Positions 1,826 to 53,239 of a stretch of 64,000 nucleotides of DNA are shown piece after piece. A program made the translations under genes and the position numbers. Every line of letters begins with the position of its first letter. Positions within the stretch are counted from its first letter, which is position 1. Origin of the DNA: Eledone cirrhosa (lineage: Eukaryota); assembly GCA_964016885.1 (NCBI GenBank), contig OZ024746.1:77128001-77192000 (forward strand), given 5' to 3'. The notes below the pieces were generated by a model, which was not told the DNA's origin, searched no databases, and was given only the letters and a program-made list of their open reading frames with translations.

Positions 1826-2242
1826 AGATCTTTGGCGCTACACAGTAATACAGAAGACCCGCCTTGCCTAAGTACAAAGCGAAACCTACAGTCAGTAGGC
1901 ACCTCTAACATAAATACACCCCCACCCCATCCACACCACCCCTTTCGATGTAAAGTTATGTTGGTACCACAACATCCAGTCCGAAACAAATGAGGTCGTG
2001 TAGGTGTCACAACAAAAAAACACACAGTCCACGCTGTAATGTGGCCATGTAGGTAACACGGTAAAAACCTCCCAGCCCCACACTGTAAACGTGGTTGGTG
2101 TTAGGAAGGGCATCCAGCCGTAGAAAACCCGCCAGACAGTCCTATACGAGCAAGACAACCAATCTTGCCTCAAGTGGGAAAATTCCCGTCCAAACCCATG
2201 CAAGTGTGGAAGATGGACGTTAAACGATGATGATGATGATGA
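1826..2242 (+). mobile_element. RTE-derived non-autonomous retroelement (SINE-like)
   Basis: GGTTGGTGTTAGGAAGGGCATCCAGCCGTAGAAA core and a GGACGTTAAAC(GAT)n tail shared with the RTE LINE 3' end. Near-identical to the copies at 7938-8303 and 29168-29500. Confidence 0.85.
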
Positions 2243-2422
2243 ATTGGCAGTATTGGTAGAGGGTTGGACGCCATGCTTTCTAGCATAATTACGTCCCTTT
2301 ACGGTCTGAGTTCAAATCCTGTTGAGGTTAACTTTGCCTTTCATCCTTACGGGGTCGATAAAATAAAGTACCAGTAATGCACTGGGTAATTGCTGGCCTT
2401 GTGCCAAAAGTAGAAACAATTA
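2243..2422 (+). mobile_element. tRNA-derived SINE with Nin/Deu-like core
   Basis: A-box-like TGGCAGTATTGG, B-box GAGTTCAAATCC and core GCCTTTCATCCTTACGGGGTCGATAAAATAAAGTACCAG. Other copies near 17585, 48610, 48730, 56107, 56700 and 59793. Confidence 0.85.
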
Positions 2423-2666
2423 TATGTATATGTGTGTGTGCGCTTAAAATGATTTCATTTGATTTTGTGGAGAAATAATAACTTCTTTCACAGAAGTCCA
2501 CAAAAGACTGGTCAGATCTATAATCAATTGACTTAACCCTCATACTTTACTAGTACTTATATTATCAGCTATAGAAGGATTAAAAGAAGTCAACCCAATG
2601 GAATTTCAACCCTGCTTTTTATTTTTACTTAAATATAATAAAGATGAGTGTAGGTTAAAAACTTAC

Positions 2667-2714
2667 CGTCTTCGAGAATTGCTACGCCTGGGAGAATCTC
2701 GCCTGCGACGATTC
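2667..2714 (-). CDS. NKTR: Exon 19 (NRRRRDSPRRSNSRRR)
   Basis: atgtag|...|gtaagt, 48 nt, phase 2-2, RS-rich. Confidence 0.9.
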
Positions 2715-5144
2715 CTACATAAGTACACAATTTTCATTAAATCAAACCTTTATTTTAAACGATTTCATGAAAAAGTAAAAATGTGTTTTGGGCTTTTTTT
2801 GAAAATAATCTTTCATAACCATATTTCTAATGAAAGACACTCCCTATGGTTTTCAATTAATTTTGAAAATAATCAAGAATTTGATGTGGTTTAGTAATAT
2901 AACTAACTTTTTCATTAATTTGGTGTTTGGAACAAAGGTTTTTACAGTTATGGTGGAAGGTTTTTAGATAAATATAAACATTTTAAAACAAACAGTTGTA
3001 TTGTAGGTAGAACCAGGGTGGTTTGGGACAATTTGATACAAAATAAAAATGAATTATTAGATATTAGAATATTGTATTTAGAAACTGGTTCCCAGAGATT
3101 CTTTGTATTTGGTTTCAAGTTTCTCGCAAGGTTTAACCCATTTGATATGAAACCACATTAGAAATATAGTAACAAATGAATCAAGAGTGAATCTCAATTT
3201 AGATCTTGAGAATCCTTTAGCAGTACTGAAATCATAAGTCTGCTTTTGAAATTTTCATTGAACATTTTCTATTTGTGTTAGTAATTTAGAAGGTTAAATT
3301 TGAAAGACTGGACTAGAGAAGATGGGTACCACCAAGCATTTCTAAGGCTCACTGATATGCCATGATGGACACACAGTCAAACATCTAAAGTAACAGCTGT
3401 ACTACACCAGTAGCTAAACCTACATAGGTATGAGCTGCAACAGCACGATAGGACTGGAGCCCTATCATTACAACACCAAATAAACCTTGAATGATTGATT
3501 GAATTTAGAAGTGAATGAAGTTGTAGAATTCATGTGAATCCTATTGGCCACTCTGGAACAATGCTTCCCAAAGTGAGTTCCATGAGATAAGGTGTCCTGT
3601 CCAGGGAGAGGCTTGTACTCTCAGTCACGTAATCCCAAGGAAACTGGAGATAAGCACCAACCTGATGAGCCTTCGGCTTAGAACAGAGTTTAACTAACTT
3701 AATTCACTCCTTAGGAGTCTTTTAAAGAAATTCAAAATAAAGTTTATGGTTCTTTATATTTGACTAAATTCTCTCTCTGAAACATTTAATGTCTTATTAA
3801 AATTAAGACAGTGGAGATTGCTTATACAATATAGTTACAGTTTTGGTGATTTTTGGAAAATCATATAAAGGTTCTGCAACAAAACATTTTGGAACCACAG
3901 CTCTAGAATTAACATGTAGACTTATCATCACCAACAACATTTAACGTCGGTTTTCTTTGCTAGAAAGGGTTCAATAAGTCATCACAAACCAAGTCAGTGC
4001 TTATTCAGAATCACTGACTCTACAGCAAGTATCATGTGCATTTTATCGTGACACTAGCATTAGGGAGATTTTCATGTCTCCGATACAATTGTAGAATCCT
4101 CTTGGTCTTTTATTTGACAGGTTTTCTATGGATGGACACTTTTCCTATCACCAGCCATTTAGCAGAGTGTACTGAGTGCGTTTTATGTTGCCAACCCTAT
4201 GGAGGTTGTTGTTCCCTTGACAATATTTAAGGCTCATTCAGTTTTATTTTTAAGGGTAGGCTTTCTTGTAATATGCAAAAGAATGAGCCAGATGAAATAT
4301 TACTAAAATATTACTAACCCTCAACATCTAATGATTTAGTAAAAAATATTGAGAAACAGGTTTGATAATTCAAATGTTTATAAAATCTTTGCAAGTGAAC
4401 AGATAGTTGTGAAAATTTGTAGTATTAAATTAAAGACTGATTTTTAATGTGATGCTTTGTACTTTTCAAGAATGTTTTGCTAATGCAGGTACTGTTAACA
4501 TTTAAAACACTAGAAAAACCCAACTTACTTAGAAGTGTCTCTAGAAGGGCTGCGCTTATACTTAGAAGTTGATGATGATGATATTGGGGATCTGTGACGA
4601 TAAGGAGGACCCCTAGAAAAAGAAACATCAACATTCAGATAAAGTAAAACAAAAATCAGCAATTACAGTGTGGAAGAGTTATAATCTTCCAAGCTGTAAT
4701 AACTTTAGTTCCAACACAGTCCCTAATCAAGTCACTTCCCAGAAAAGTACAATTCCTACTTTAATGTCCTGCTTTATCAATGGTACAGCCAAATGCCTTC
4801 CCTGATGCCAACCAATACCTTTCAGTATGGTAGAGATTCACTGACTTAATGGTGGTAAAAACGCATACAAACACACATATTCATACAAATGATGAGCTTT
4901 CACAGTTCCCATCTACCAAATTCATTCACAGGATATCGTCAGCCAAAAGCTATAGAAGACACTTGCCTAAGGTGCCATGCAGTGGGGACCATACCCAGAA
5001 CTACATGCTTTAGAAGCGAACTTATTAACCACATAGCCATAAAATAAATATCATATGCTGTGAAGATTTCCCACATTTCCAAATTGAATTAAAAAAAAAT
5101 TGCTGACGTTTCCAAAGGAAGATGTAATGAAAAGCACTACGAAC

Positions 5145-6020
5145 CTACTCCTAGAACGCGTTGATCTACGCTGTTTCCACCTAGGGGGCGAATAGTTACT
5201 GGTCCTCATATAAGGTCGTGATGAACGAGGTGAAGTATATTTTCTTGATGACCGAATCCCTCGAGAGGAAGAGGAACGTGAATACCTGGTTAAAGAGTAT
5301 GATGTTGGTGAATGGTTCCAACGTCCAGTACGCACTGGGGAATTTCGGCTGGATGACCTGAAGTGGCGCTTCGGAGACCGTGAATGGCTTCTCGATTTAC
5401 TACTGTTGTGACTGGTATGCCGTCTGCCTGATGACTTTTTTGGAGAAGGACTCGAATCTCGTGTGTACGACTGTTTGGATGATGATAGGGTTGAATGATG
5501 TTTCTCATCTTCAGTGCACTTAGAAGAAGGGATACTTATCACATCAACAGTTTCTTTTTTGCCACTTTTTTCAACACTGTCTTTCTCAATTACAGCCTTA
5601 GTTATTTCAGAGATCAATGGTGGTTGCATCTTTAGATCACCTGCTTTTGTATCTGAAGGTAAAGGCACAGGGACATCAGACAATTCAATTTCAATACTCT
5701 CTTTCGTAACCTCATCTGAATTAATGGTAGTCACTGCTTCCACAACTGTTGCTTTCTGGTCTGTTTCGCAACTGACCACTACAGCAGGTGTTGGGATTAC
5801 AGCTTTGGCCAATACAGAACTGCTTGTATCAGAAAGTTTCAAAGTAGAAGAGGAGATGTTCTGTGCACATTTATCTGTCATTGCTGGAACTGCAGTCAAA
5901 GAGTCAATGGAAACAGAGGCTACAGTGCTTGTGGAACTAGGTGGAAGCGGTACAGATTTCACACTTCCAACAGGATCAGGAGGAGTTGGGATGTTTGCTA
6001 GTAATGCTGCAGAATTGAGT
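5145..6020 (-). CDS. NKTR: Exon 18, large S/T/P/E then RS-rich exon
   Basis: ttccag|...|gttcgt, 876 nt open, phase 2-2. Confidence 0.9.
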
Positions 6021-7678
6021 CTGGAAAAAATAAATGGAAAGTATAACAAGAAAATTAGTAATTGAAAAAATATTAACCTTTTTGTTAACATATTTCTAAT
6101 GATATATACTGTACTTCAATAAAAAGTACAAAACACCACTTTGACTGTGTCACATTAACAATTATAGCCTTTATTCTAATACTACAAATGTTCCCAACAA
6201 TTTGACCATTAGTAAAGATACTATAAACATTTGAATTGACAAACCTGTATTTAGATATTTTCTTTGAAATCATTACAGGAGGTTAGGAGTTAATGCTCGT
6301 GAAATTAATGTGCAAGTGGCTGAGGATTCCACAAACACATCTACTCTTAACGCAATTTTAAGGAAGATTTAGCATGACTCAAAGCTGGCCCTTTGAATTA
6401 CATGTACAATACATTTTTGCGAGCTGAGTAGACTAAAGCAATGTGAAATAAAGCAACTTGCTCTAAGACACATGTGGTTGGAAATTGAACTCACAATTGT
6501 GAGTCAAGCACATTAGCCACTATGACTGTATATTACTGGTATATATTTTACTGACTTTGAACACTGAAAAAATGTTGCATTTAGTGTAATCTGAACTAAG
6601 AAACAAGATGTACCAAACCTATTACCATAAAGTATATAGTCCAGTTTTCTACTTTTATAGTCAACATACCATCTCACAAAAGCTAATTTTTACTGTGGAG
6701 AAAATTAGAAAATTGAACCAACTATAGTAGATTACATGTACTTATTTTATTGATCCCAGAAGGAATGGAAGGAAAGTCGACGCTCCGTTAATATTTGCAC
6801 TCAGATTCAAGAGATGAATTTTAAATACTGCCATAAGTGCAGGCATGGTTATGTAAAAGAGTTTGCTTCTCAATCAAGTAGTTTGGGGTTCAATTCCACT
6901 GTGTAGCACCTTAAGAAGAAATGTTCAGCTATAGCCTCAGGGTGACCAATACCTTGTGAGTGAATTTTGGTAAGCAAAAACTTGTAGAAACCCATCCTAT
7001 GTATGTGTGTGTTTGTATATCAGTGTCTGGATTTATGTTTGTCTGTCTGGACTTATGACCCCCAATGAAAAGAGATCGATAAAATAAGTATCAGACATGA
7101 AAAAAAAAGTATGATTTAGTGTTGATATGATTGATTAAATCAAGGTTGTGCCTCGGCATGGCCACAGTTTAATGATTGAAACCAGCAAAAAAAGTACATG
7201 AATAATAGGAATACCTCAAGCCAATCATTCTATATTGTCTTAGCCATGTCTAGTACCAACACCCACTTCACCTTATAATACCAGGAAAAAAAAAACAAAC
7301 AGAACTAAGCTTAGTCATTACTGAGAATTCAAATGAATATCAAATTAATACAAGTTGTAAAAATAAGAAAAATAAAAATATTTCATTAATAATTTTCGGG
7401 GAAGAATACCTTTCTGTGGTCATTCTCAACAATATATAATTGAGCTATTCAAACAACAGGCCACATGCATGCTTTTGCAAACACCCACAAGGAAATCATG
7501 TTAGTGCATGTTTCATATCATGACAAAAGTTAGTCATTCCTCTCATTCCCAAACCAATAAAATTCCATGATAGAGGCCAATTTTTTACAAGCTGTTACAC
7601 ACCTTTCAAAGTCCATACTTGTCTCAATTATACTTAAACATGACTGAAGCTTAAATGAGGAGATAAGCAATGAGTAAT

Positions 7679-7723
<45 letters not shown>

Positions 7724-7726
<3 letters not shown>

Positions 7727-7828
7727 GGTGTCCCCCAAAAAATGTATACTACAAACTTTGATTACTTATACAGGCTATATTTATTAGAATGCTGTTGAAG
7801 TGTGTATACATTTTTGGGGGTCACCCTT
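7724..7828. mobile_element. About 105-bp mariner-type MITE
   Basis: TA|CAGGGTGTCCCCCAAAAAATGTATAC ... GTATACATTTTTGGGGGTCACCCT TIRs; inserted at a (TA)n run. Confidence 0.8.
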
Positions 7829-7937
7829 ATTTTATATATATTCACACACACATACTTGCTTGCTTAAGTGTTAACTATAGAGAGTCATGAACGAATAAAC
7901 AAAATGGAGCTGTGCATCAAATTGGACCAAGGAAACA

Positions 7938-8303
7938 CGAAACCTACAGTCAGTAGGCACCTCTAACAAAAATACACCCCCGCCTCACTACCCCCACCCC
8001 ACCCCTTTCAATGTAAAGTTATGTTGGTACCACAACATCCAGGCCGAAGCAAATGAGGTCGTGTAGGTGTCACGACAAAAAAAAAACCCAGTCCACGCTG
8101 TAATGTGGCCGTGTAGGTAACACGGTAAAAACCTCCCAGTCCACACTGTAAACGTGGTTGGTGTTAGGAAGGGCATCCAGCCATAGAAAACCTGCCAGAC
8201 AGTCCTATACGAGCAAGTCAACCAATCTTGCCTCAAGTGGGAAAATTTCCGTCCAAACCCATGCAAGCGTGGAAGATGGACGTTAAACGATGATAATGAT
8301 GAT
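7938..8303 (+). mobile_element. RTE-derived non-autonomous element, young 5'-truncated copy
   Basis: Near-identical to 1880-2242; probable TSD GAAACA at 7932 and 8304. Confidence 0.85.
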
Positions 8304-8645
8304 GAAACATTTCTATTGGTCTTTCCATTGATGATAATATCAGCCAGTCATCACTCCTGGCAGGGCAGGAGGCAGGATTTCAATTCAGAACATGCAGCGC
8401 TGGATCAGATACTGCAAAGCACCCTGTCCAACTCTTTAACAATTCTGCCAACCCACCATCCTTGAAATGGTACTTTATTAATCAACCTTAAAAGAATGCA
8501 AGGCAATGTTGATCTTCGTGGTATTTGAGTTCGGATGGCAGTGAGTGAACAAATACAGAGGTATATTAATCTGATGCCCTAATGACTCTGCCAACTAAGG
8601 AATTGAACTCAACTTAAGACAATAATTTAAAAAATTTAAGAAAGA

Positions 8646-8707
<62 letters not shown>

Positions 8708-9487
8708 AATAGAATATTTTTTTGAAATAAGAAGCTTCAGAAAAAAGCTATAAATAAAGCTATGAATAAAGCTCTTCACTGAAATGATGCTTTAAGATTT
8801 GAAGGATGCAGAATGAGACAGAAAATTTAACTAATCTTTCACACGCTTTTTTTTGGTAGTCCAGATCAACTGTATTTGAACAGACCTGTAATACGGAGGC
8901 AGCTGATCAGTACTTCCTGCCATGATTATCCAACATTTAGCACGAGAAATATTACACAAAAATTATTACCTAAAACACATAATTCTTTTCATCATCAAAG
9001 TTTTTACATCAATTTTTCTATGGCGCCATGAGATGGATAAGACCTTTTTGAAGCAGTATTCTGACTGGATGCCCTTCTTGGTGGAATTTGTTCCAGTCTT
9101 TAGTAGTCTGAGTTCAAACCTTACTTTGGCCTGCTAATCACCATAGAAAGGGTAGGAGTGCCACCATGAACAGAGATGTAACCAACCATAGTAAGAGAGA
9201 GCTAGGTTATTTAGCCTACTGAGAGTAGATGCTAGCTGATGATATATTTCTTTTCAGTCATGACAAATAATCATAAACAGGGCCACAAGTTAGGCTATGT
9301 AGTTAAGATGTTTGTTTTGCAACCACAGTTCTGAATTCGATTTCATTGGGTGGCACCTTGGGCAATTTTCTTCTAATATAGCCTTGTGAGAGAATTTGGC
9401 AGACAGAAAGTGTGAGGAATCCCTTGGGATAAGATGATAAAAGCTGACCTTGCACAACTGTACCTCTCAAAAGCGATGACACGATCG

Positions 9488-35683: not shown

Positions 35684-36395
35684 CTACAAAAGTAAAAATT
35701 TTCTCTGAATACACTAATTAGATAAATGTGCTTATTTGAAAGAAATCCAATCTTTCCTAAATTTCCCCTCTACTTTTCATTGAATAAAACACAAAACAAC
35801 ATTAAATTAATTTAACCAATAAAGTTAAATTAAGCCTCAATTTGTTTACCCCCTTTTGATATCAACTCACCTGAAACTGACTCCAGGTTCATAAAATACA
35901 AAACTTTTTATTTTAAGGTGTTTATATTTATCTGTTTATATTTATCTAAAAACTTCCATCATAATTTTAAGAACCTTTTGTTATATTCCAAACACCAGCT
36001 TAATGAGAATTAGTTATATTAATAAATTCCTGATTTTTTTTTTCACTATTTTCCCAAACTGCTTATCATTATCATCACCAGTTTTATGTATATTTCCATG
36101 CTTGCATTGATTAGATAGGCTGTCACCATCTGAGATTAGGCAGGTCAGATAACCATCATGCTCATGTTCAATTCTAACATGGTTTTTACAGTGGATGCCC
36201 TTCCTAATGCCAACCACTTCATGGCATGTACCAGGTTCTTTTTCTTGTGGCACTACCACTACCACTTTATAGTGTGGGCTGAGCACACCAAACATACATA
36301 TACACACATACACATATATACATACAAACATATGTATCTATACACAGATACACATATATATATACACATTACACATACATACATATATATATATA

Positions 36396-37280
36396 CAGGG
36401 TGCGGACGATATTTGTTCGCAAGATTACTGTCTAGGAAAAAATAAGTTTTATTTTTTAAGATATATTTATCAAACTTGGGTCAGTTTGTCTTCATGACTT
36501 GGTCTTTCGATCTCACTTGATAAACCCACCATTGGCTTTGATAACGGCTTCAAGGCGGCCTTGGAACCAGCTACAGGCCTTCGTCACTGTCCCCCGACTT
36601 AGGCCCCTAAAGGCACTTGTGATCCTGGCCTTCAGATTGTCTTTCGTATTGCAGCTAGATCTGTTGGTGTCTCGTTCCACTGCACCCCACACAAAGAAGT
36701 CGAGGAGGTTGCAGTCAGGCGAGCTGGGAGGCCAGATGTAAGGTGAAGTGTGGTCGACGAAGTTCTCTGACAGCCAGGCTTGGGTCTTTCGGCTGGTATG
36801 GCAGGGCGCTGAGTCTTGCTGCCACATGTACGGCCTACCTGCAGCTACCTGGTCAATCCAGGGCTTTACTACCTCGTTCAGAATGCAGATATAGCCATCA
36901 GTGTTCAGCTTGAGGACCTCAGGGAAGAAGTGAGGTGGCATGACGTCATCTTGACTGCTGACGACACCTAAGACCAATGTTGTCGCTGGAAACTTTGTCT
37001 GCATGACTCTGGGCACGTCTTTGGATGAGACACCATTCTCCTGCTGACGCTGAGAAAGTCTGAAATTTTCTTATTTGTCCTCCCACCGCAGATTCCAAGA
37101 GGAACTCCATGTCTCTTCCACAAATTTGGAGGTTCAAAATTATTCATAATCAATTATTCTGAAAACAAATAATGGAAATATAGTCACTGATTTTATGAAG
37201 ACAAGAGTGACAACAGAAGTAAATAAAATTTGCATAAAATTAGCAGTTGAAAATTGCGAACAAATATCGTCCTCACCCTG
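36396..37280 (-). mobile_element. Internally deleted DD37D (maT-type) transposon, 885 bp
   Basis: TA-flanked 27-bp TIRs CAGGGTG(C/A)GGACGATATTTGTTCGCAA with one mismatch. ORF 36513-37016 has QQDSAPCH...WPPSSPDCNLLD with 37 residues between the second and third catalytic Asp. The first Asp and most of the HTH are deleted. Confidence 0.95.
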
Positions 37281-40200
37281 TATATGAAGGCGCATGGCTT
37301 AGTGGTTAGAGCATTGGGTTTGCAATTGAAAGGTTGTGAGTTCAATTCTCAGACTGGGTGATGTGTTGTTTCCTTGAGCAAGACATTTTATTTCACATTG
37401 TTCCAGTTTACTCAGCTGTAGAAATAAGATGATAGGACTGGAGTCCCTATCATTCCACTGCAAAGTGGTCGTGGAGGTGCCGCAGCAAAAAAGCACCCAG
37501 CCCACACTGTAAAAGTGGACATGTAGGCACCACGGAAAAAAAGGACCCAGTACTCACTGTAAATGAGGTTGGTGTTAGGAAGGGCATCCAGCAGTAGAAA
37601 TCAAGCCAGAATCAGTTCCCGTATGAGCAACACAAGGTCAGCCGACCGGACACTGCCCACAACAGGACAACCCGTCTAACTCATGCTAGCATGGAAGAAT
37701 GGACGTAAAACGGTGATGATGATGATAATATATATATATGTGTATGTATATATATATATATATATACATATCTATACAAACATTCATACATACATACATA
37801 CACACAAACATACATACTTATATACACACAAACACACAATCATTATCACCATTTAACCTCTATTTTCCATGCTTGCATAGCTTAGACAGTTGAGGTTGAG
37901 GTACAAAGATTACATTGCTGAAAAAGGAGGGGTGAGGGGTCATGGTGATGACCTTTAAGTGGCTGGTGTCTGACATTGTGGAAGTGTGCTTAGTTTCTCT
38001 AAATGGCCTAGGGGGTGTTTATATACTGCTTGGAATAAGTGGGTGTGTGATGTCTGTCCATCATTATGATGTGTCCCTAGGTTGATGAAATTTTGGGGGT
38101 TTAAGGATTCAGCAGGGGTGATGAACCAATCAAGGTTCATACAAACTTTCCATGCTTGTATGGGTTGGGCCAGGCAAGGACCTGAGAGTTGTTTCATCTC
38201 TTTGCTTTTTCAGGGGCATGCTAGCAGGGAGTTCAGGAGTATACTGGCAAGCTGGGGTGGGACCCAAGTGTTGTATCCCCACTCTGTTTCTTTGGGTTTA
38301 GAGTGGAGGGAGGTATGTGGTTTGCTATCCTTTGTGTGCTACTTCATTCCACTTTCATGAGAATGTGAGTTCTCTGTATTATGGAATATCGCCAATTTTC
38401 TCAATCCTGGATCATCTCCTTTGTAAAATTCAGTATGAGATCAGCCTTCACCACATCATTTAACGTCTACTTTCTCTGTTAGAAAGGGTTGGACAGGTCC
38501 ACACAAACCAAGTCAGTACTGAAACAGGACCACCAACTTCAGTATTTGCTTCATGCCCAAGTTCTCCTACCCATCATTATACATCCATGATCCTTAGTAG
38601 CAATTTCTCACCATCATTGTATATGCCCATTCTATAAATGCTTCACACCTTTGTAGGTATTCTCACATTACTATATTCCCCTTCTAAAATCCTGACACAT
38701 CAGTCATAATGCCCTAGTCCAATGCTCATCACATGCTATCCCGCTCATTACCCTGTCAAATCCCACCACACTCTTCATACACCATCACTGCCATAGGGTA
38801 GAGAGGCCTCTAAACTAAAGGCAATTATTGACGACTTCTCTAGTGCTCATGCCATGAAAAATTCACCCAATACCCCATCCGATGATTGGTGATAGAAAGG
38901 CCATCCCACTGAAGAAACCATGCCAAGAGGCTCCAGAGTACACTTCAGCTGTGTTAACAGTACATCAAACTCTCTAGTGTTCATGATCTACACAATAAAT
39001 GCATCCAGTACACACAAGTGGTTGCTGATAGAAAGGCTATCTAGTTAAAGAAAGCTTGCTAAACAAAGGATCAAAAAGACTCTTCAGCTATGTCAAAGAA
39101 TTGACAACTTCTCTAGTGTAGGTGCTACGATAAAATGCAGTCGGTAGAGCATAGAAACATATGTATGCAAGATGTAGGCCCACTGCCAATCTGAGAGGTC
39201 AGTAGCTCATCATTTTACATTTGCTTTCCAACACATGGGAAGGACAAGTTGTCACAGTTCAAGACTAAACAATTCAGAGAGACCTCAGCTTATTATACAT
39301 ACCATATTTCACATGGTTTCTATGGCTAGATACCCTCCCTAACACCAAGTGCCTCACAGGGTGTACTAGGTGCATTTTATCATGGCACCAGCAGTAGAGA
39401 GGTTGTCATATGCTCAAACAGACTGAATTGGTCTTTTTATTTTATATTGTCTGAACATCAACCACATTACAGAAGGTACTTGGTGCATTTTATCATGGTA
39501 CCAATGTCTTAGCATCGAGACTTAGTAAAATTATTAATTATTTAATTACTAAGATAGTAACATAACATATGGTTCTAATATAAAATTATGTTGGAAGATT
39601 TTAATTTAAATAGGAACCCTTTAAAATGGGTGCTTTTTTTTTATAAAACCAGATCTGGTTTTGGCTGAGTTGGTATCAAAATAGCCAAGTGACTTATCCT
39701 CTTAGTGAACAAAAATTAGTATGGATGATTAAAGTTCACTCTAAAACATTCTGTGTCAATTATATTAGCAATAGTCTAAAGATCTGAAAATATAGCTTGC
39801 AAAACACAGAAAAATATTTTCTTGCTCATATATATCAAAATATCTGGGGCCAACAGGGGCGCAAGTCGGGTGCACTATATCCTCTTGTTCCCTTGTTCTA
39901 CTTTCATTCTCTGAATAGTTTTACAATACTTCAGGTAGTTTATATATTATGGTATAATGTGTCAGCAAGATAAAAACATTACTACATATACAAGATGCAA
40001 ACAAATGATGATGATAATATATATGCCTGAGTGTGTGTGTATATATATTTTGAAGATACAAAGGCAAATATTAATGATTCAACAGAAACAAGTGTAAACA
40101 CACTCAAAGAAATAGTAGACAGCTATGCTACTGTTGACATTGCTAAATATTAAAACACAACACATACTTCACAGTTGAATAGCTAAACCAACTATAATAT

Positions 40201-41208
40201 ATGTGTGAAGGCATATGACTTAGTGGTTGGGATGTTCAGCTCATGATTGTCATGTTGTGAATTTGATTCCCTGCAGCACATTCCTTTAGTCCACTTAACT
40301 CAGAAGTCTCAAATTCAAAGAATCAAAAGGGTCATAGCAGGCCAAAAGTGAGAAGAGTTTGAGGAGTGGGCTGATTTCCACCCCATGCAATATGAGTTGA
40401 CAAATCTATTTCTTTCATTATGAAACAAATTTCCTCATGTTCTGTTGTGCATGTTAGTTATCTGTCATCTGAAGCACACCATCCACACCAATGTGAGTTG
40501 TCAAATCTACCCCTTTTTACATTATGAAACAAAAAAATTTCCTTTATGTTCTATTGTATAAATTTTCTATAATCTAAGACATCCCTCCACCACAATCAGT
40601 TTTTGAAAGAAGTCGAGGTAGATTTCACTAACGCTCTTGTTAAGAATGTTTTTTTTTTAAGTATATAAAATTGGATACATATTTCTACTGATCGGCTTTT
40701 GATCTTGAAGTGAAAGCGACTGATATATTAAAGTACATTCTACTCTTCCTTGGAGAGAAACATGGACAGACCCAGGATGATATTCAAAGGATACGATACA
40801 CGTGTCTGTGGAATGCTCAGCCACTTTCACTTTAATTTCACAAGCAGACTGTTCCACTGTTTAAACAACTGGAACATTCATCATCAGAGGTCATGGGTTA
40901 GACAGGTATGGTTTCTGCAGGTGGATACCCTCCCTAATGCCAACTACTTTACAGAGTGACTGGGTGCACTTTATTGTAAAGCCAGCAATACCTCTTTACA
41001 GAATGTACTGAGTGCATTTTATTGTGGCACCAGTATGAGCACTTTACTAAGTGTACAAGGTACATTTTATCGTGCAATAGCACTATCACACACACACATA
41101 TTATACATTTTAGATTGACTGTAAATAAATTTGACTACTACCAGTATTGAGTTCACCTTACAAGTTGGTATTTATTGTTATTTATAATCCTATAAGTCAA
41201 CAAACCTA

Positions 41209-41267
<59 letters not shown>

Positions 41268-41399
41268 TAGAAGTTGTATTTAATTTGTTGGAAGTCCGAC
41301 AAACAAATGTTTATAACTGATTTAGAGCACTCAACAAGTTACTGGAGTAAATATTCAATGATATTAAATAAATGGAAACTATATTTATAAAACCATATT

Positions 41400-41464
41400 T
41401 ATTTTATTATATATATTTCAAGGGCAACCAAGACAACATTGATACGCTTTCATCAGATAAAATA
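41400..41464 (-). ncRNA. Mirror hammerhead motif, sense to the NKTR-like pre-mRNA
   Basis: Reverse-complement copy of 41594-41658 with one stem II change (U-A to U-G). Confidence 0.75.
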
Positions 41465-41593
41465 CAAAGTTTGTTTTATAAATAGAGACGTACCCATGAA
41501 AATCATACCTTATCGGTTGGAAATTCACTGTGAATTTCCAACCGATAAGGTATGATTTTCATGGGTACGTCTCTATTTATAAAACAAACTTTG

Positions 41594-41658
41594 TATTTTA
41601 TCTGATGAAAGCGTATCAATGTTGTCTTGGTTACCCTTGAAATATATATAATAAAATA
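41594..41658 (+). ncRNA. Minimal type-I hammerhead ribozyme motif
   Basis: Stem I TATTTTAT/ATAAAATA; CUGAUGA at 41602-41608; imperfect stem II AAGCGTA../..TACCCTT; GAAA at 41639-41642; 1-bp stem III with palindromic AUAU loop; AUA cleavage triplet ending at 41650. Confidence 0.75.
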
Positions 41659-41697
41659 AATATAGTTTTATAAATATAGTTTCCATTTATTTAATAT

Positions 41698-41742
<45 letters not shown>

Positions 41743-43739
41743 AATTCTGGACATCAACAGGATATGATTTAATCAAAACTGCAAAGAATGCTTTGTGTGT
41801 ATTCCCATGTAATTATGTAAGCACATTAACATCATATTTAATATATGCACACGCGCGTGTGTGTGTATGCCATCTGCAAGAGTTTAAACAATCCTAGCCA
41901 TAGAAACATGTACATCTACTAAGGCCATATGTACAAACCATGTGTGAATCTGACTTATTCACATGATATAATGTAAACACATCACATTCACTGAAATTTT
42001 TTATCTATATAAAAGGAATGGTGCCAATCGTTAGATTGGACTATGAAAAATACGTTTCCATTGCTGATACTATCTGTCAGTGACAACTGCTATATCTGTC
42101 AGTGACAACTGCTAGCAGGAGGAGGTAGGATTTGAACCTAGAATGTGCAGAGCCAGATCAGATACTGCAAAATATCCCGTCTGACTCGTTAACAATTCAG
42201 CCAATCCACTGCCTCTGAATGAGTACTTTATTTATCGACCATAAAAGGATGAAAGATAAAGTTGATCTTCAGTGTATTTGTGCACAGTAAGCCAGAACAA
42301 GTACAGAGATATTTAATCTGATACCCTAATGACTATGCCAATTCACTGCATAATTTGTTATCCTAACATCTCTTATGAGTTAATATACCTGGTATGAGAC
42401 TCAGAGCATGAAGAAAATGTTAGTATAATGGAACAATGTAGCTTTTTCAATGTTCCCAGCCTCTGTTTTGTTTTCTTAAATTAACTTTCATGCACTTTTC
42501 ATTCGTCCTTACAAAAGTTATTTTTCAAACTCTGTACATATGTAGATACATACAAACATATATACACACACATGGACAACAGATAAAGCATAAAATAAAA
42601 TTGACATTTAACTGCATATGTTTTATAATGGTGCATCCAACCTATGCCAGAATGGAAAGCACATTTATGATGATGATATCGAATGAAGATAATATAGGAT
42701 AGATGGAACTCTAATCTTGTCAAAGACATAACAACCTCTCTTGTGCTGGTGCTATCATAATGTTCCTAGTACACTTATGCTAATCATACACTTCAGAGAA
42801 AGATACAAGTAACACACCCTTCCATTATTCACCCCTGTATATCTGAAATTTTTATAGCAACACAAGATATTAACATAAATGTGAATCGCTACGATAAAAT
42901 CTTAACAATTAATAACTCCGTTATCAATCCTTGAAACAATTAATGTGCTCAGCATCAAAATGACCATTAAAGATATGAAAGCAGCAAGATCATCTAAAAT
43001 AAGACTTGTGTTAGTCGTTCACATAACCAATTGAGATGTATGATGAATTTTCTATCAGTTTCAATAATGAGAATTCAATTGTTTGAATATTAAACTGATG
43101 AAGTAATGTGTAAATTATTCCCAAGCCTAATCAGGTACAATTCATCTGATGGGCTTCCATATAGTTTCTCTTGACCCAATTTCACTTACAAGACTTGGGT
43201 CAAGACACTTGAGTCCTCATGATTACAAAGTGGATTTCTAATCCATTAAGTTATGCTGTGTACATAGGTAGAATAGGGAGATATTAACCCCAATATGAAA
43301 ATAGTAACAAGATCAACTGCTAAAAAAGTAAAGGAAATTCTCTAGGAAAAAGGGATTGCAGAGCATGAAACTGATGATGAAAATGGCAGAGAGAATTATT
43401 CTTCCTCCTCATCAGCACCGTTTAATGTCTGATTTTTCCATGCTAGCACACATTGGACATGTCATCACAAACCATGTTAACACTAAATCAGAACCATTGT
43501 CCTCACTGACAGGCCTGAGGCCACATCTTACTTACAAAGTGTACTAGGTGCACTTTATCATGGCATCAGTGCTAGGAAGGTTGCCATACCCTTGACACAA
43601 ATTGAAGACTCCTCTCAAACCCTTTGTTTGGCACATTTCCTATGGCTGGATGTTATTCCTAACACCAACACTTTACAATTTAGATATATATATTAGGCTT
43701 ATGCCAAAACAACATACCATGCACTGTTATAGTCTGATG

Positions 43740-44740
43740 GATGGTAAAGAAACTGGATGAGGTGAAATGACTTGAGAGCGATGTAAGTCACAAGGAGTGA
43801 CTATAAGCAAGGTGAGAGTTTGTGCAGGTAAATGTCTATCAGAGTCTGGTTCTCACTCTCTTATTATTATAATATCTTTCTAAGACAGCTAAAAGTCAAC
43901 TTAGAACATAAAAATTGTAGTTAGCAGGAAAGAATAGAGAAGTCTGCTTTCTGGAAAGTGTTCATGCTTGATATGCAGAAATGTATCAGTAGTAAATCTA
44001 TACTGCATATGCATTGTAAACTATGGTTGCACAAAAGGTATAGAGGGATTTAAGAAAAGCTGACAAGACTTCATATGTAACAGATGCATAGGAGTGGTTA
44101 GAAGCAAAAGCACTCAGAAAGTTTGATAGGAGTTGACAGCCTCTGTGAGCTAGGTGACCTAATCAGCAATGGAAAAGTGTGTTCTGAAAGCACTTAAGTA
44201 GAAGGCTTACTAAAAGTAGTTGACAGTCTCTATAACCTAGGTGACTACATCAGTAGTGGAGGAGTGTGTTCTGAAAGCCTTGTAGCCAATCTAGGATGCA
44301 GCAGGGAAAGGTACAGAAAATTATTACTTCTGTTGGCAACAAATGAATTTTCTAAGTGAAGGGCAGATTGTATGGCATTTGTATGCAAATTGTGATACCA
44401 CATGGTAGCGAGATATGGGTAGCACTGAATGTGAGTGTGAAAAACTAGGAAATAAAGCATGATCCATTGGATGTGTAATGCCAGTGCACAGGAATGATAA
44501 AATACAGGAGAGCAGGAAACTTTGAGCATTATAGGGATCGTATTTAATATGCAAGAAAGAAACCTTCACTGGTACAGATATGTGATGCATATGAAGAATG
44601 ACAGTTAAGTGAAGAAGTATCAAGCAATCTTGTGGAAGGAGATTGTAGATCTTAGGGACCACAATGGTGAGATTCTGCAATAGGGTAGACATGCTGAACC
44701 GATGTCAGCATGGAAAAACAGCTATGAAATGGGGATAATG
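43740..44740 (+). pseudogene. Heavily decayed RTE LINE 3' portion
   Basis: Broken remnants resembling the 56875-58746 element, ending in a GCATGGAAAAAC-type tail. Confidence 0.65.
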
Positions 44741-45352
44741 AACACATCTTGGTATAGTGAAGCATGTGGCCTAGTAGTTAGAGAGTTGAATTCATGATCA
44801 TATAGTAAAGGGTTTGATTCCTAGACCAGGTGGCATGTTATGTGTGTCACAATTTGATGGTTTTCCTGAAGCACAGCAGTTCAACATATGAAGATTAGTA
44901 TATTACTTTAAAAACAAGAAGGGTTGGCATCAGGAAAAGCTACTCTTACCCACTAAGCTAACAGTACATTAATCATTTTGATACCAAAATGCCTGAAACC
45001 ATCCATTGGTTCTCCTGTCATAATTTGTTTAGTTATGTTCTAAATACCAGCTTAATAACAGACAAAGTTAGTTATATTATTAAATTACTCTAGCTTCTTG
45101 ATTATTTCCAAAGTTATTTGAAAACCACAAGCAGTGTCTTTCATTAGAAATATGGTAATGAAAAGATTAAATCTTTATATTTATCTAAAAATCTTTCATC
45201 ATAATTTTATTTAGGACATGATGTTATGTAAACTATGTTTCAAACATCAGTTTAATAATGAGAAAGTTATATTACTAAATCCCTCTAGATTCTTGATAAT
45301 TTCAAAGTTTAATGAGCCAACTGACAATAGATTAGAAAGGTTAATAACTTAC

Positions 45353-52466: not shown

Positions 52467-52736
52467 TCATCACTTTCAGTTCTGTCTGGTGTCTGCACAT
52501 TGGTGAGCATGCAGCTGGTTTCGTGTGGACGTCCAGCCAGATGATTTAGAGACAGTTGCTTCTGATAGGACCTTCTGGAAGGCATGTCAGGACTCTGTTC
52601 CCACAATCCTCTCATGCACAACTGGGAGAAGAAGATTGCAAATTGGTGTGTGCGTGTGTCTGTGTATACATATGTCCCAAGGCTCTGATACCATCAACAC
52701 TATAAACACAGAGCTGGCATATCTAAGAACTGACTA

Positions 52737-52794
52737 ACTGCCTGATGAGGTCATAGCCATTCAATGGCTATCATTGAAATATATATATAGCAGT
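52737..52794 (+). ncRNA. Minimal type-I hammerhead ribozyme motif (PLE-type)
   Basis: Stem I ACTGC/GCAGT; CUGAUGA at 52742-52748; stem II ATAGCCAT/ATGGCTAT with G.U base; GAAA at 52776-52779; palindromic AUAUAU loop III; AUA triplet ending at 52789; AATAAA follows. Confidence 0.8.
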
Positions 52795-53239
52795 AAATAA
52801 AGGATTATGAGTTCATGCAATTGACTTATGTTTCGTCACTATATATATATATATATATACATGTATACATATATTCATTTGCACATACATCATTCATTTT
52901 ACATCACTTTTCTATACTGGTGAGGGTTGGACAGGTTGTCATAATCTGAGATTAGATGAGTTAAAGGGACCTTATCTTGCTCACACATTCTATATTTGAC
53001 ATGGTTTCTACAGCTAGGTGCCTTTCCTAATGCCAGTGGTACAAACACTACCACTTTGCAAAGTGGGTGTATCTTATTGTGGCACAAGCACTAACACTTT
53101 ACAGAGTGTAGTGAGTGTATTTTATCATGACATCAGCACTACCACTCTATCATATATTGTCTCTGTTCAATTAACAGCCTCAAAATTAGGAATTACTATG
53201 GGACAATCTGCTGGAAGCCATGAACCAGGCAAGATGGAA

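Follow-up and report, generated by a model that had tools for sequence, protein, structure and literature searches.

An intronic inverted pair of truncated pLTRs from a likely Hydra-clade Penelope-like element in Eledone cirrhosa, with a hammerhead motif on each strand

Inverted pairs of truncated pLTRs, one-sided tails and (TA)n targets have already been published for Penelope-like elements (PLEs), as far as the available parts of four reports go (PMC8557442, PMC3846280, PMC4209133, PMC11167929). Head-to-head inverted pLTRs appear in the accessible text of PMC3846280, where self-priming is proposed for them; in that of PMC11167929, the target is cut on both strands and two internal start sites define the tail. 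The Hydra clade of PLEs is marked by RW(R/K), by DKT in place of DKG, by CxCx5C and by CxxC/CxH around E and N (Craig 2021, PMC8557442). The part of its supplement available to us gives (TA)n targets for Hydra families, among them Penelope-13_HM, which has an inverted 5'-truncated copy with a hammerhead on each strand. Minimal hammerheads of this kind appear to be poor ribozymes when alone: in the available sections of PMC4209133, a single minimal motif does not cleave and dimers cleave at a low level, and in those of PMC11167929 the minimal PLE hammerhead does not cleave without the element's protein and the uncleaved RNA serves as template.

Here we analyse an inverted repeat in a 64,000-nucleotide stretch of the E. 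cirrhosa genome, referred to as the window. The feature is real: two truncated pLTRs of a likely Hydra-clade PLE stand in inverted orientation. The arrangement itself is known. Its family shares with the Hydra clade (PMC8557442; Penelope-13_HM, Hydra-1_Obim) a single ORF of ~740 aa with RW(R/K), DKT, YRDD, CxCx5C and, at its C-terminal end, GIY-YIG, as well as the (TA)n target and a hammerhead in the pLTR and, judging from the accessible supplement, the inverted copy with hammerheads on both strands seen in Penelope-13_HM. It departs from that clade in having RWR where the clade has RWK and a gap of ~1.1 kb of AT-rich sequence between ORF end and pLTR, and its 90-bp tail exceeds the 30-40 bp given for PLEs. 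Its hammerhead, in which III is an AU palindrome of 8 nt and the long stem II contains a C-C mismatch, is unlike all Hydra ones listed in the available part of the source, including that of Hydra-1_Obim. The minimal PLE hammerheads in the accessible text of PMC4209133 are also type-I, with a palindromic helix III, a long helix II and thousands of dispersed truncated-PLE copies; that text also reports dual motifs on opposite strands, separated by 100-700 bp, as found here. Stem I has 8 bp here versus 4-5 bp in that text, and our motif count of 48,652, made up of pattern matches from several families, exceeds its 2,000-9,000. Published PLE insertion units, in the available portions of PMC3846280 and PMC11167929, have the same head-to-head inverted pLTR, one-arm tail, two reverse-transcription start sites and AT-rich target; in contrast to those units, both arms here have been reduced to just the pLTR, and a target duplication is indiscernible inside (TA)n. 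Non-LTR retrozymes (bioRxiv 10.64898/2026.07.22.740005) are likewise non-coding, hammerhead-bearing and related to the PLE pLTR, but they are tandem direct repeats with at least two consecutive hammerheads, whereas this locus has a single inverted pair on opposite strands.

The palindrome and its host intron

We re-derived the coordinates of the palindrome and recovered everything the initial annotation had described of its geometry: arms of 173 bp each around a central T, exactly two mismatches between the arms (41425/41633 and 41394/41664), and (TA)n on both sides. The left arm extends 90 bp further with no mirror on the right, which leaves a one-sided tail. The features are as follows (window coordinates; flanks approximate).

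35684-45352, minus strand: intron of the host, GT..AG, separating coding exons 1 and 2 of a gene with a cyclophilin domain (by homology)
41216-41265: (TA)n microsatellite, left flank, likely insertion target
41266-41355, minus strand: 90-bp tail, on a single arm; in longer copies between the pLTR and the ORF's 5' UTR/ATG
41356-41528, minus strand: tail-bearing pLTR arm, sense to the host gene; minimal hammerhead core from 41456
41529: head-to-head junction, within a family-wide 5'-end hotspot
41530-41702, plus strand: tail-less pLTR arm, antisense to the host gene
41594-41658, plus strand: minimal type-I hammerhead motif
41703-41736: (TA)n microsatellite, right flank

The intronic position that had been proposed is confirmed by homology. 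The minus-strand cyclophilin exons 45416-45353 and 35683-35609 are in frame with each other when joined across a GT..AG intron of 9.67 kb, the first of the gene, and Pfam PF00160 matches exon 2 and two later exons. The gene (5054-45416, minus strand) has multiple exons, with RS-rich ones downstream (e.g. 19528-18977 and 6115-5054), and may run past the window start; we presume it to be similar to PPIG/NKTR. The same intron also holds a 185-aa open frame (36516-37070, minus strand), which we take to resemble a Tc1/mariner transposase fragment.

A coding Penelope-like element and its hammerhead

A search of the 3.0-Gb genome with one arm yielded at least 1,506 candidate matches, and the 40 that were scored are all at least 98% identical; a 36-mer from the arm's 3' end had 5,451 exact genome matches against 0 for its control. 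About a dozen of 30 fetched loci show homology that continues upstream into AT-rich sequence, the longer copies among them carry GIY-YIG-like and reverse transcriptase (RT)-like frames upstream of the arm, and the 3' UTR, GIY-YIG and RT sequence in that position is common to other copies. Using the family RT as a protein query gave 142 scored matches (72-100% identity). When the best 20 long RT loci were fetched in full, several had the same pLTR downstream, beyond the ~1.1 kb of AT-rich sequence that follows the ORF, and none of these 20 best-matching loci contained a fully intact ORF. On the other side of the ORF, pLTR, tail, ATG and a 741-aa ORF stand in series at one locus (L066). A 30-mer of the ORF 5' UTR has 36 genome matches; among the 30 such loci shown, inspection by eye placed the tail directly upstream of the 5' UTR in 29 and a hammerhead-bearing pLTR upstream in 18. 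The initial annotation had recognised a PLE pLTR from the inverted pair, the one-sided tail and the minimal hammerheads, and had suggested a genome-wide search with one arm; the abundant copies and their linkage to an RT/GIY-YIG ORF now tie that reading to a coding element. Its further suggestion of an undescribed non-autonomous ribozyme retroelement family is not supported: arm and coding element form one continuous sequence, and the palindromes differ in their junctions from locus to locus.

The protein has the features of a PLE of the RT plus GIY-YIG type. An AlphaFold model (pLDDT 84), for which 26 sequences were used as input (2 family ORFs and 24 of 31 homologues), has TERT 3du5 as its top Foldseek hit (E 4.2e-9). 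With Pfam, the RT of the family ORFs went unrecognised and GIY-YIG (PF01541) had an E value of 4.6e-4, below the cut-off; PDB sequence and profile searches returned nothing relevant, one giving two weak unrelated matches (E 0.046) and another none. A C-terminal GIY-YIG is visible in the alignment as a VVY..Y(V/L/I)G and R..H pattern, and Atlas neighbours carry GIY-YIG and RVT_1 in part of the members. YRDD is present in most ORF copies. The family ORFs have RLRWR (RWC in one copy) and SDKT, while RWK and DKT dominate among the homologues; the linker reads CNCRIKSNC (CxCx5C), and CKLC/CSLC..E..N..CKH/CRH follows CxxC..E..N..CxH, not CCHH. The family thus combines the telomerase-like RT ORF, C-terminal GIY-YIG, inverted or tandem pLTR, 5' truncation and one-sided tail of EN+ PLEs with the RWK-type motif, DKT, CxCx5C, CxxC/CxH, (TA)n preference and pLTR hammerhead of the Hydra clade. 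Judged by these listed motifs, it is likely to be a Hydra-clade element.

A complete minimal hammerhead had been reported in each arm, and both are present. On the plus strand, 41594-41601 pairs with 41651-41658 to form an 8-bp stem I, followed by the core CTGATGA (41602-41608), a stem II (41609-41638) made of 3 bp, a C-C mismatch and an inner stem, GAAA (41639-41642), and a self-complementary loop III, ATATATAT; the cut is predicted after 41650 and AATAAA lies downstream. The mirror hammerhead on the minus strand (at 41456) has its predicted cut between 41408 and 41407. Rfam found no hammerhead at the locus, only hairpin-type matches below the gathering score. The core pattern has 48,652 genome matches, spread over several PLE-like families, against 154 for the reversed control, and is therefore not a chance occurrence. 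It is intact in 27 of 28 close copies, so the core is conserved among genomic copies, a point on which the first reading had been left to stand or fall.

Among 133 distinct motifs in the fetched DNA, stem I reaches at least 5 bp in 109 and the C-C mismatch after three stem-II pairs is retained in 115. Across families, stems I and II of these motifs show compensatory pairs (T-A/C-G, A-T/G-C, G-C/T-A); the swapped-halves control for this covariation, with 6 clusters, is a weak one. The loop III variants ATATATAT, ATATGTAT, ATGCGCAT and ATACGTAT are all self-complementary, as loop III mostly is overall, and self-complementarity that persists despite variation is what the dimer model predicts. Folding of the monomer predicts a stem III pairing probability of 0.001. 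The hammerheads belong to the element itself; they are predicted to require either a dimer or its protein, and are probably near-inactive otherwise.

Several further observations concern these sequences. A donor-like AAG/GTATG lies near the pLTR start (41548 on the plus strand and 41510 on the minus strand) and an acceptor-like ATAG/CTCC just beyond the tail (L199-L228), such that hammerhead and tail would fall in an intron of the element's 5' UTR; two ORF copies (L059, L060) start near the acceptor-like site. One pattern representing a spliced genomic copy of this putative pLTR intron had 0 exact matches. By eye, the tail and adjoining 5' UTR are complementary in two stretches and the tail has a small hairpin (L077:5900-6100, L199-L228); this complementarity could be a structure that positions the two reverse-transcription starts. 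At three loci (L118, L167, L147), pLTR copies have been split where later insertions entered the TA-rich loop III, and the L118 insert, which ends in CTAG, is presumably Helitron-like. Elsewhere in the window, a minimal hammerhead of another family, solo and with its structure intact (52730-52800, plus strand, core at 52742), lies upstream of the first coding exon of the cyclophilin gene, with a stem II of the GGTCATAGCC type, a 10-nt AT palindrome, then AATAAA and (TA)n. At least five distinct stem-II families share the 3-bp stem and C-C mismatch (G000:C1:71744-15533867), and two palindromes of another family (L268 at G000:C2:189387484 and L273 at C2:278304947) have their junction inside the hammerhead, with loop III ATGCGCAT.

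Palindrome census and formation

We took a census of 99 of the first 100 matches to the 36-mer, corresponding to 87 loci on C1. Head-to-head arms lie less than 500 bp apart at 16 of the 87 loci, with spacings of 58-418 bp. A tail is present on 33 of the 99 arms, and where a locus has two anchored arms, exactly one is tailed (11 of 12 loci). A zone of 22 nt, lying 124-145 nt upstream of the anchor, takes in 28 of the 99 copy 5' ends; the others fall in the next 125 nt (11), in the 94 nt below (24), less than 30 nt from the anchor (11) or beyond 270 nt (25). The junction of the window palindrome, at 136, is inside the 22-nt zone, which we interpret as the putative transcription start of the pLTR. 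No sharp peak of 5' ends occurs at the predicted cut site among the 99 arms. Several of the 11 arms that end less than 30 nt upstream of the anchor are later insertions or cases of TA microhomology, and only 1-2 lie at the cut, so these ends lend no support to cleaved RNA as the template for copies.

Within a locus, the arms are mostly close to one another. Those of the window share one variant (41616) that is absent from all 28 close copies, and one of the two sites at which they differ (41633) is polymorphic in the family, so that a single-template model needs a later mutation. Seven close palindromes have, by eye, six junctions, and one locus (L021) has a junction identical to that of the window without its private variant. 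Since junctions differ and L021 lacks this variant, the palindrome is probably made anew at each insertion. Among the first 100 motif matches there are 8 divergent pairs less than 500 bp apart; at distances up to 4 kb, divergent pairs number 19 and same-strand pairs 1. As a single inverted pair in such a population, the locus was rejected as a non-LTR retrozyme; an independent palindromic element with fixed junction and length was rejected on the range of spacings and on the junction, but not the private variant, being shared with L021. Within 4 kb, the 19 divergent pairs compare with 4 convergent ones (100 motif matches, G000:C1:71744-15533867).

In our assessment the locus is very likely to consist of two head-to-head pLTR copies of an abundant PLE, likely a single truncated insertion into the intronic (TA)n. 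By analogy with a PLE of Anolis, the element's protein would cleave the (TA)n target on both strands, and reverse transcription would begin at two internal sites of the pLTR-containing RNA, 90 nt apart, giving one arm with the tail and one without. Both cDNAs would end at the likely 5' end of the RNA and be joined head to head; alternatively, the second arm could originate by self-priming fold-back. With hammerheads that are probably near-inactive, the insert is most likely a neutral dead-end copy.

Two other origins were weighed against this insertion model. A fold-back assembly artefact would agree with the lack of any centre-bridging piece among the listed public contigs and RAD reads, in which flanks and arms are covered. 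We nevertheless regard it as highly implausible: the arms differ at two bases and only one has a tail, both flanks are unique, have single-copy depth in public contigs and lie within one intron whose exons join in frame, and the same architecture recurs elsewhere in the genome with varied junctions. The palindrome itself might instead be a non-autonomous mobile unit, retrozyme- or MITE-like, that is copied whole by the PLE machinery. Mini-palindromes are indeed common (the 16 of 87 loci and the 8 close divergent pairs), 5' ends cluster near the window junction, L021 has that very junction, and PLE-derived non-autonomous retrozymes have been proposed (bioRxiv 10.64898/2026.07.22.740005). A unit copied whole fits poorly with junctions and arm lengths that vary among loci, from tail-only to kilobases, with six junctions in seven close palindromes and the 58-418 bp spread of spacings over 16, and with the private window variant being missing in L021; the retrozymes in question are, moreover, tandem direct repeats and not inverted pairs. 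We consider such a unit very improbable, and retain a truncated PLE insertion as the origin.

Shielding in host introns and significance

The initial annotation had proposed that the duplex should lock the ribozyme off, which could allow a self-cleaving motif to persist in a host intron. The geometry behind this proposal is sound. Read along the host (minus) strand, the antisense arm is transcribed first, and folding predicts that the pairing probability of stem I drops from about 0.6 alone to 0.0 in the palindrome, with a duplex of -278 kcal/mol; in the host pre-mRNA, the hammerheads would accordingly be expected to sit sequestered in a 173-bp duplex. A selective role is more doubtful: lock-off is probably unneeded for persistence, because such motifs are inactive as monomers in the accessible parts of PMC4209133 and PMC11167929 and because an intact sense copy sits unshielded in a dynein gene span.

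That copy comes from 1.0 Mb scanned in three dynein heavy-chain gene spans, which were delimited by collinear Pfam domains and not by transcripts. The structure-based scan found 14 intact motifs, against 0 in the reversed control. An inverted partner accompanies nine of them (5 sense, 4 antisense), and the remaining five are unshielded (1 sense, 4 antisense; one-sided binomial about 0.19, not significant). The unshielded intact sense copy (G000:C2:189270849) lies between AAA_9 and Dynein_C exons and means that shielding is not strictly required. A BLAST screen revealed at least two further unshielded sense copies in the dynein spans, with a damaged core or stem. The skew of 1 versus 4 leans toward fewer unshielded sense copies, as the initial annotation would expect, in a small sample.

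These counts bear on the idea that the duplex does matter, with unshielded sense hammerheads harming the pre-mRNA and being purged from introns while palindromic ones persist. In its favour are the full sequestration predicted by folding, the five shielded and one unshielded intact sense motifs compared with four unshielded antisense ones, and the damage carried by the two further unshielded sense copies. Yet an intact unshielded sense copy exists, the skew is not significant, and AATAAA together with the donor-like GTATG in the pLTR would yield the same skew without cleavage. Monomeric minimal hammerheads, moreover, remained uncleaved in the accessible text of PMC4209133 and, without protein, in that of PMC11167929, in line with the very low stem III pairing predicted for the monomer. 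On balance purging seems unlikely to us. Also improbable is a broader scheme in which a short pLTR-promoter RNA, running from the junction hotspot through hammerhead and tail, would be the preferred template and mini-palindromes would be mass-produced; their near-perfect duplexes of 100-200 bp would shield intronic sense hammerheads, unshielded cleavage-competent copies would be purged, and the palindromes would be a large supply of intronic dsRNA across the genome, open to editing or small-RNA pathways. Roughly 3,900 hammerhead pairs would exist genome-wide, provided that the first 15.5 Mb of C1 is representative. Nothing relevant to intronic ribozymes and exon tethering turned up in the literature searched.

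We found no description of the present family in the literature searched or in the available part of the PMC8557442 supplement. As a locus it is ordinary: its own subfamilies probably contain hundreds of such stumps. The family is young (98% identity), very abundant and Hydra-type, and it has sharp ends, namely two 3' ends 90 nt apart and a 5'-end hotspot. These sharp ends and this abundance make it possible to test statistically how inverted ends are built by PLEs, and the copy number makes the intron-shielding idea testable given gene annotation, so that the family is of some value to transposon specialists.
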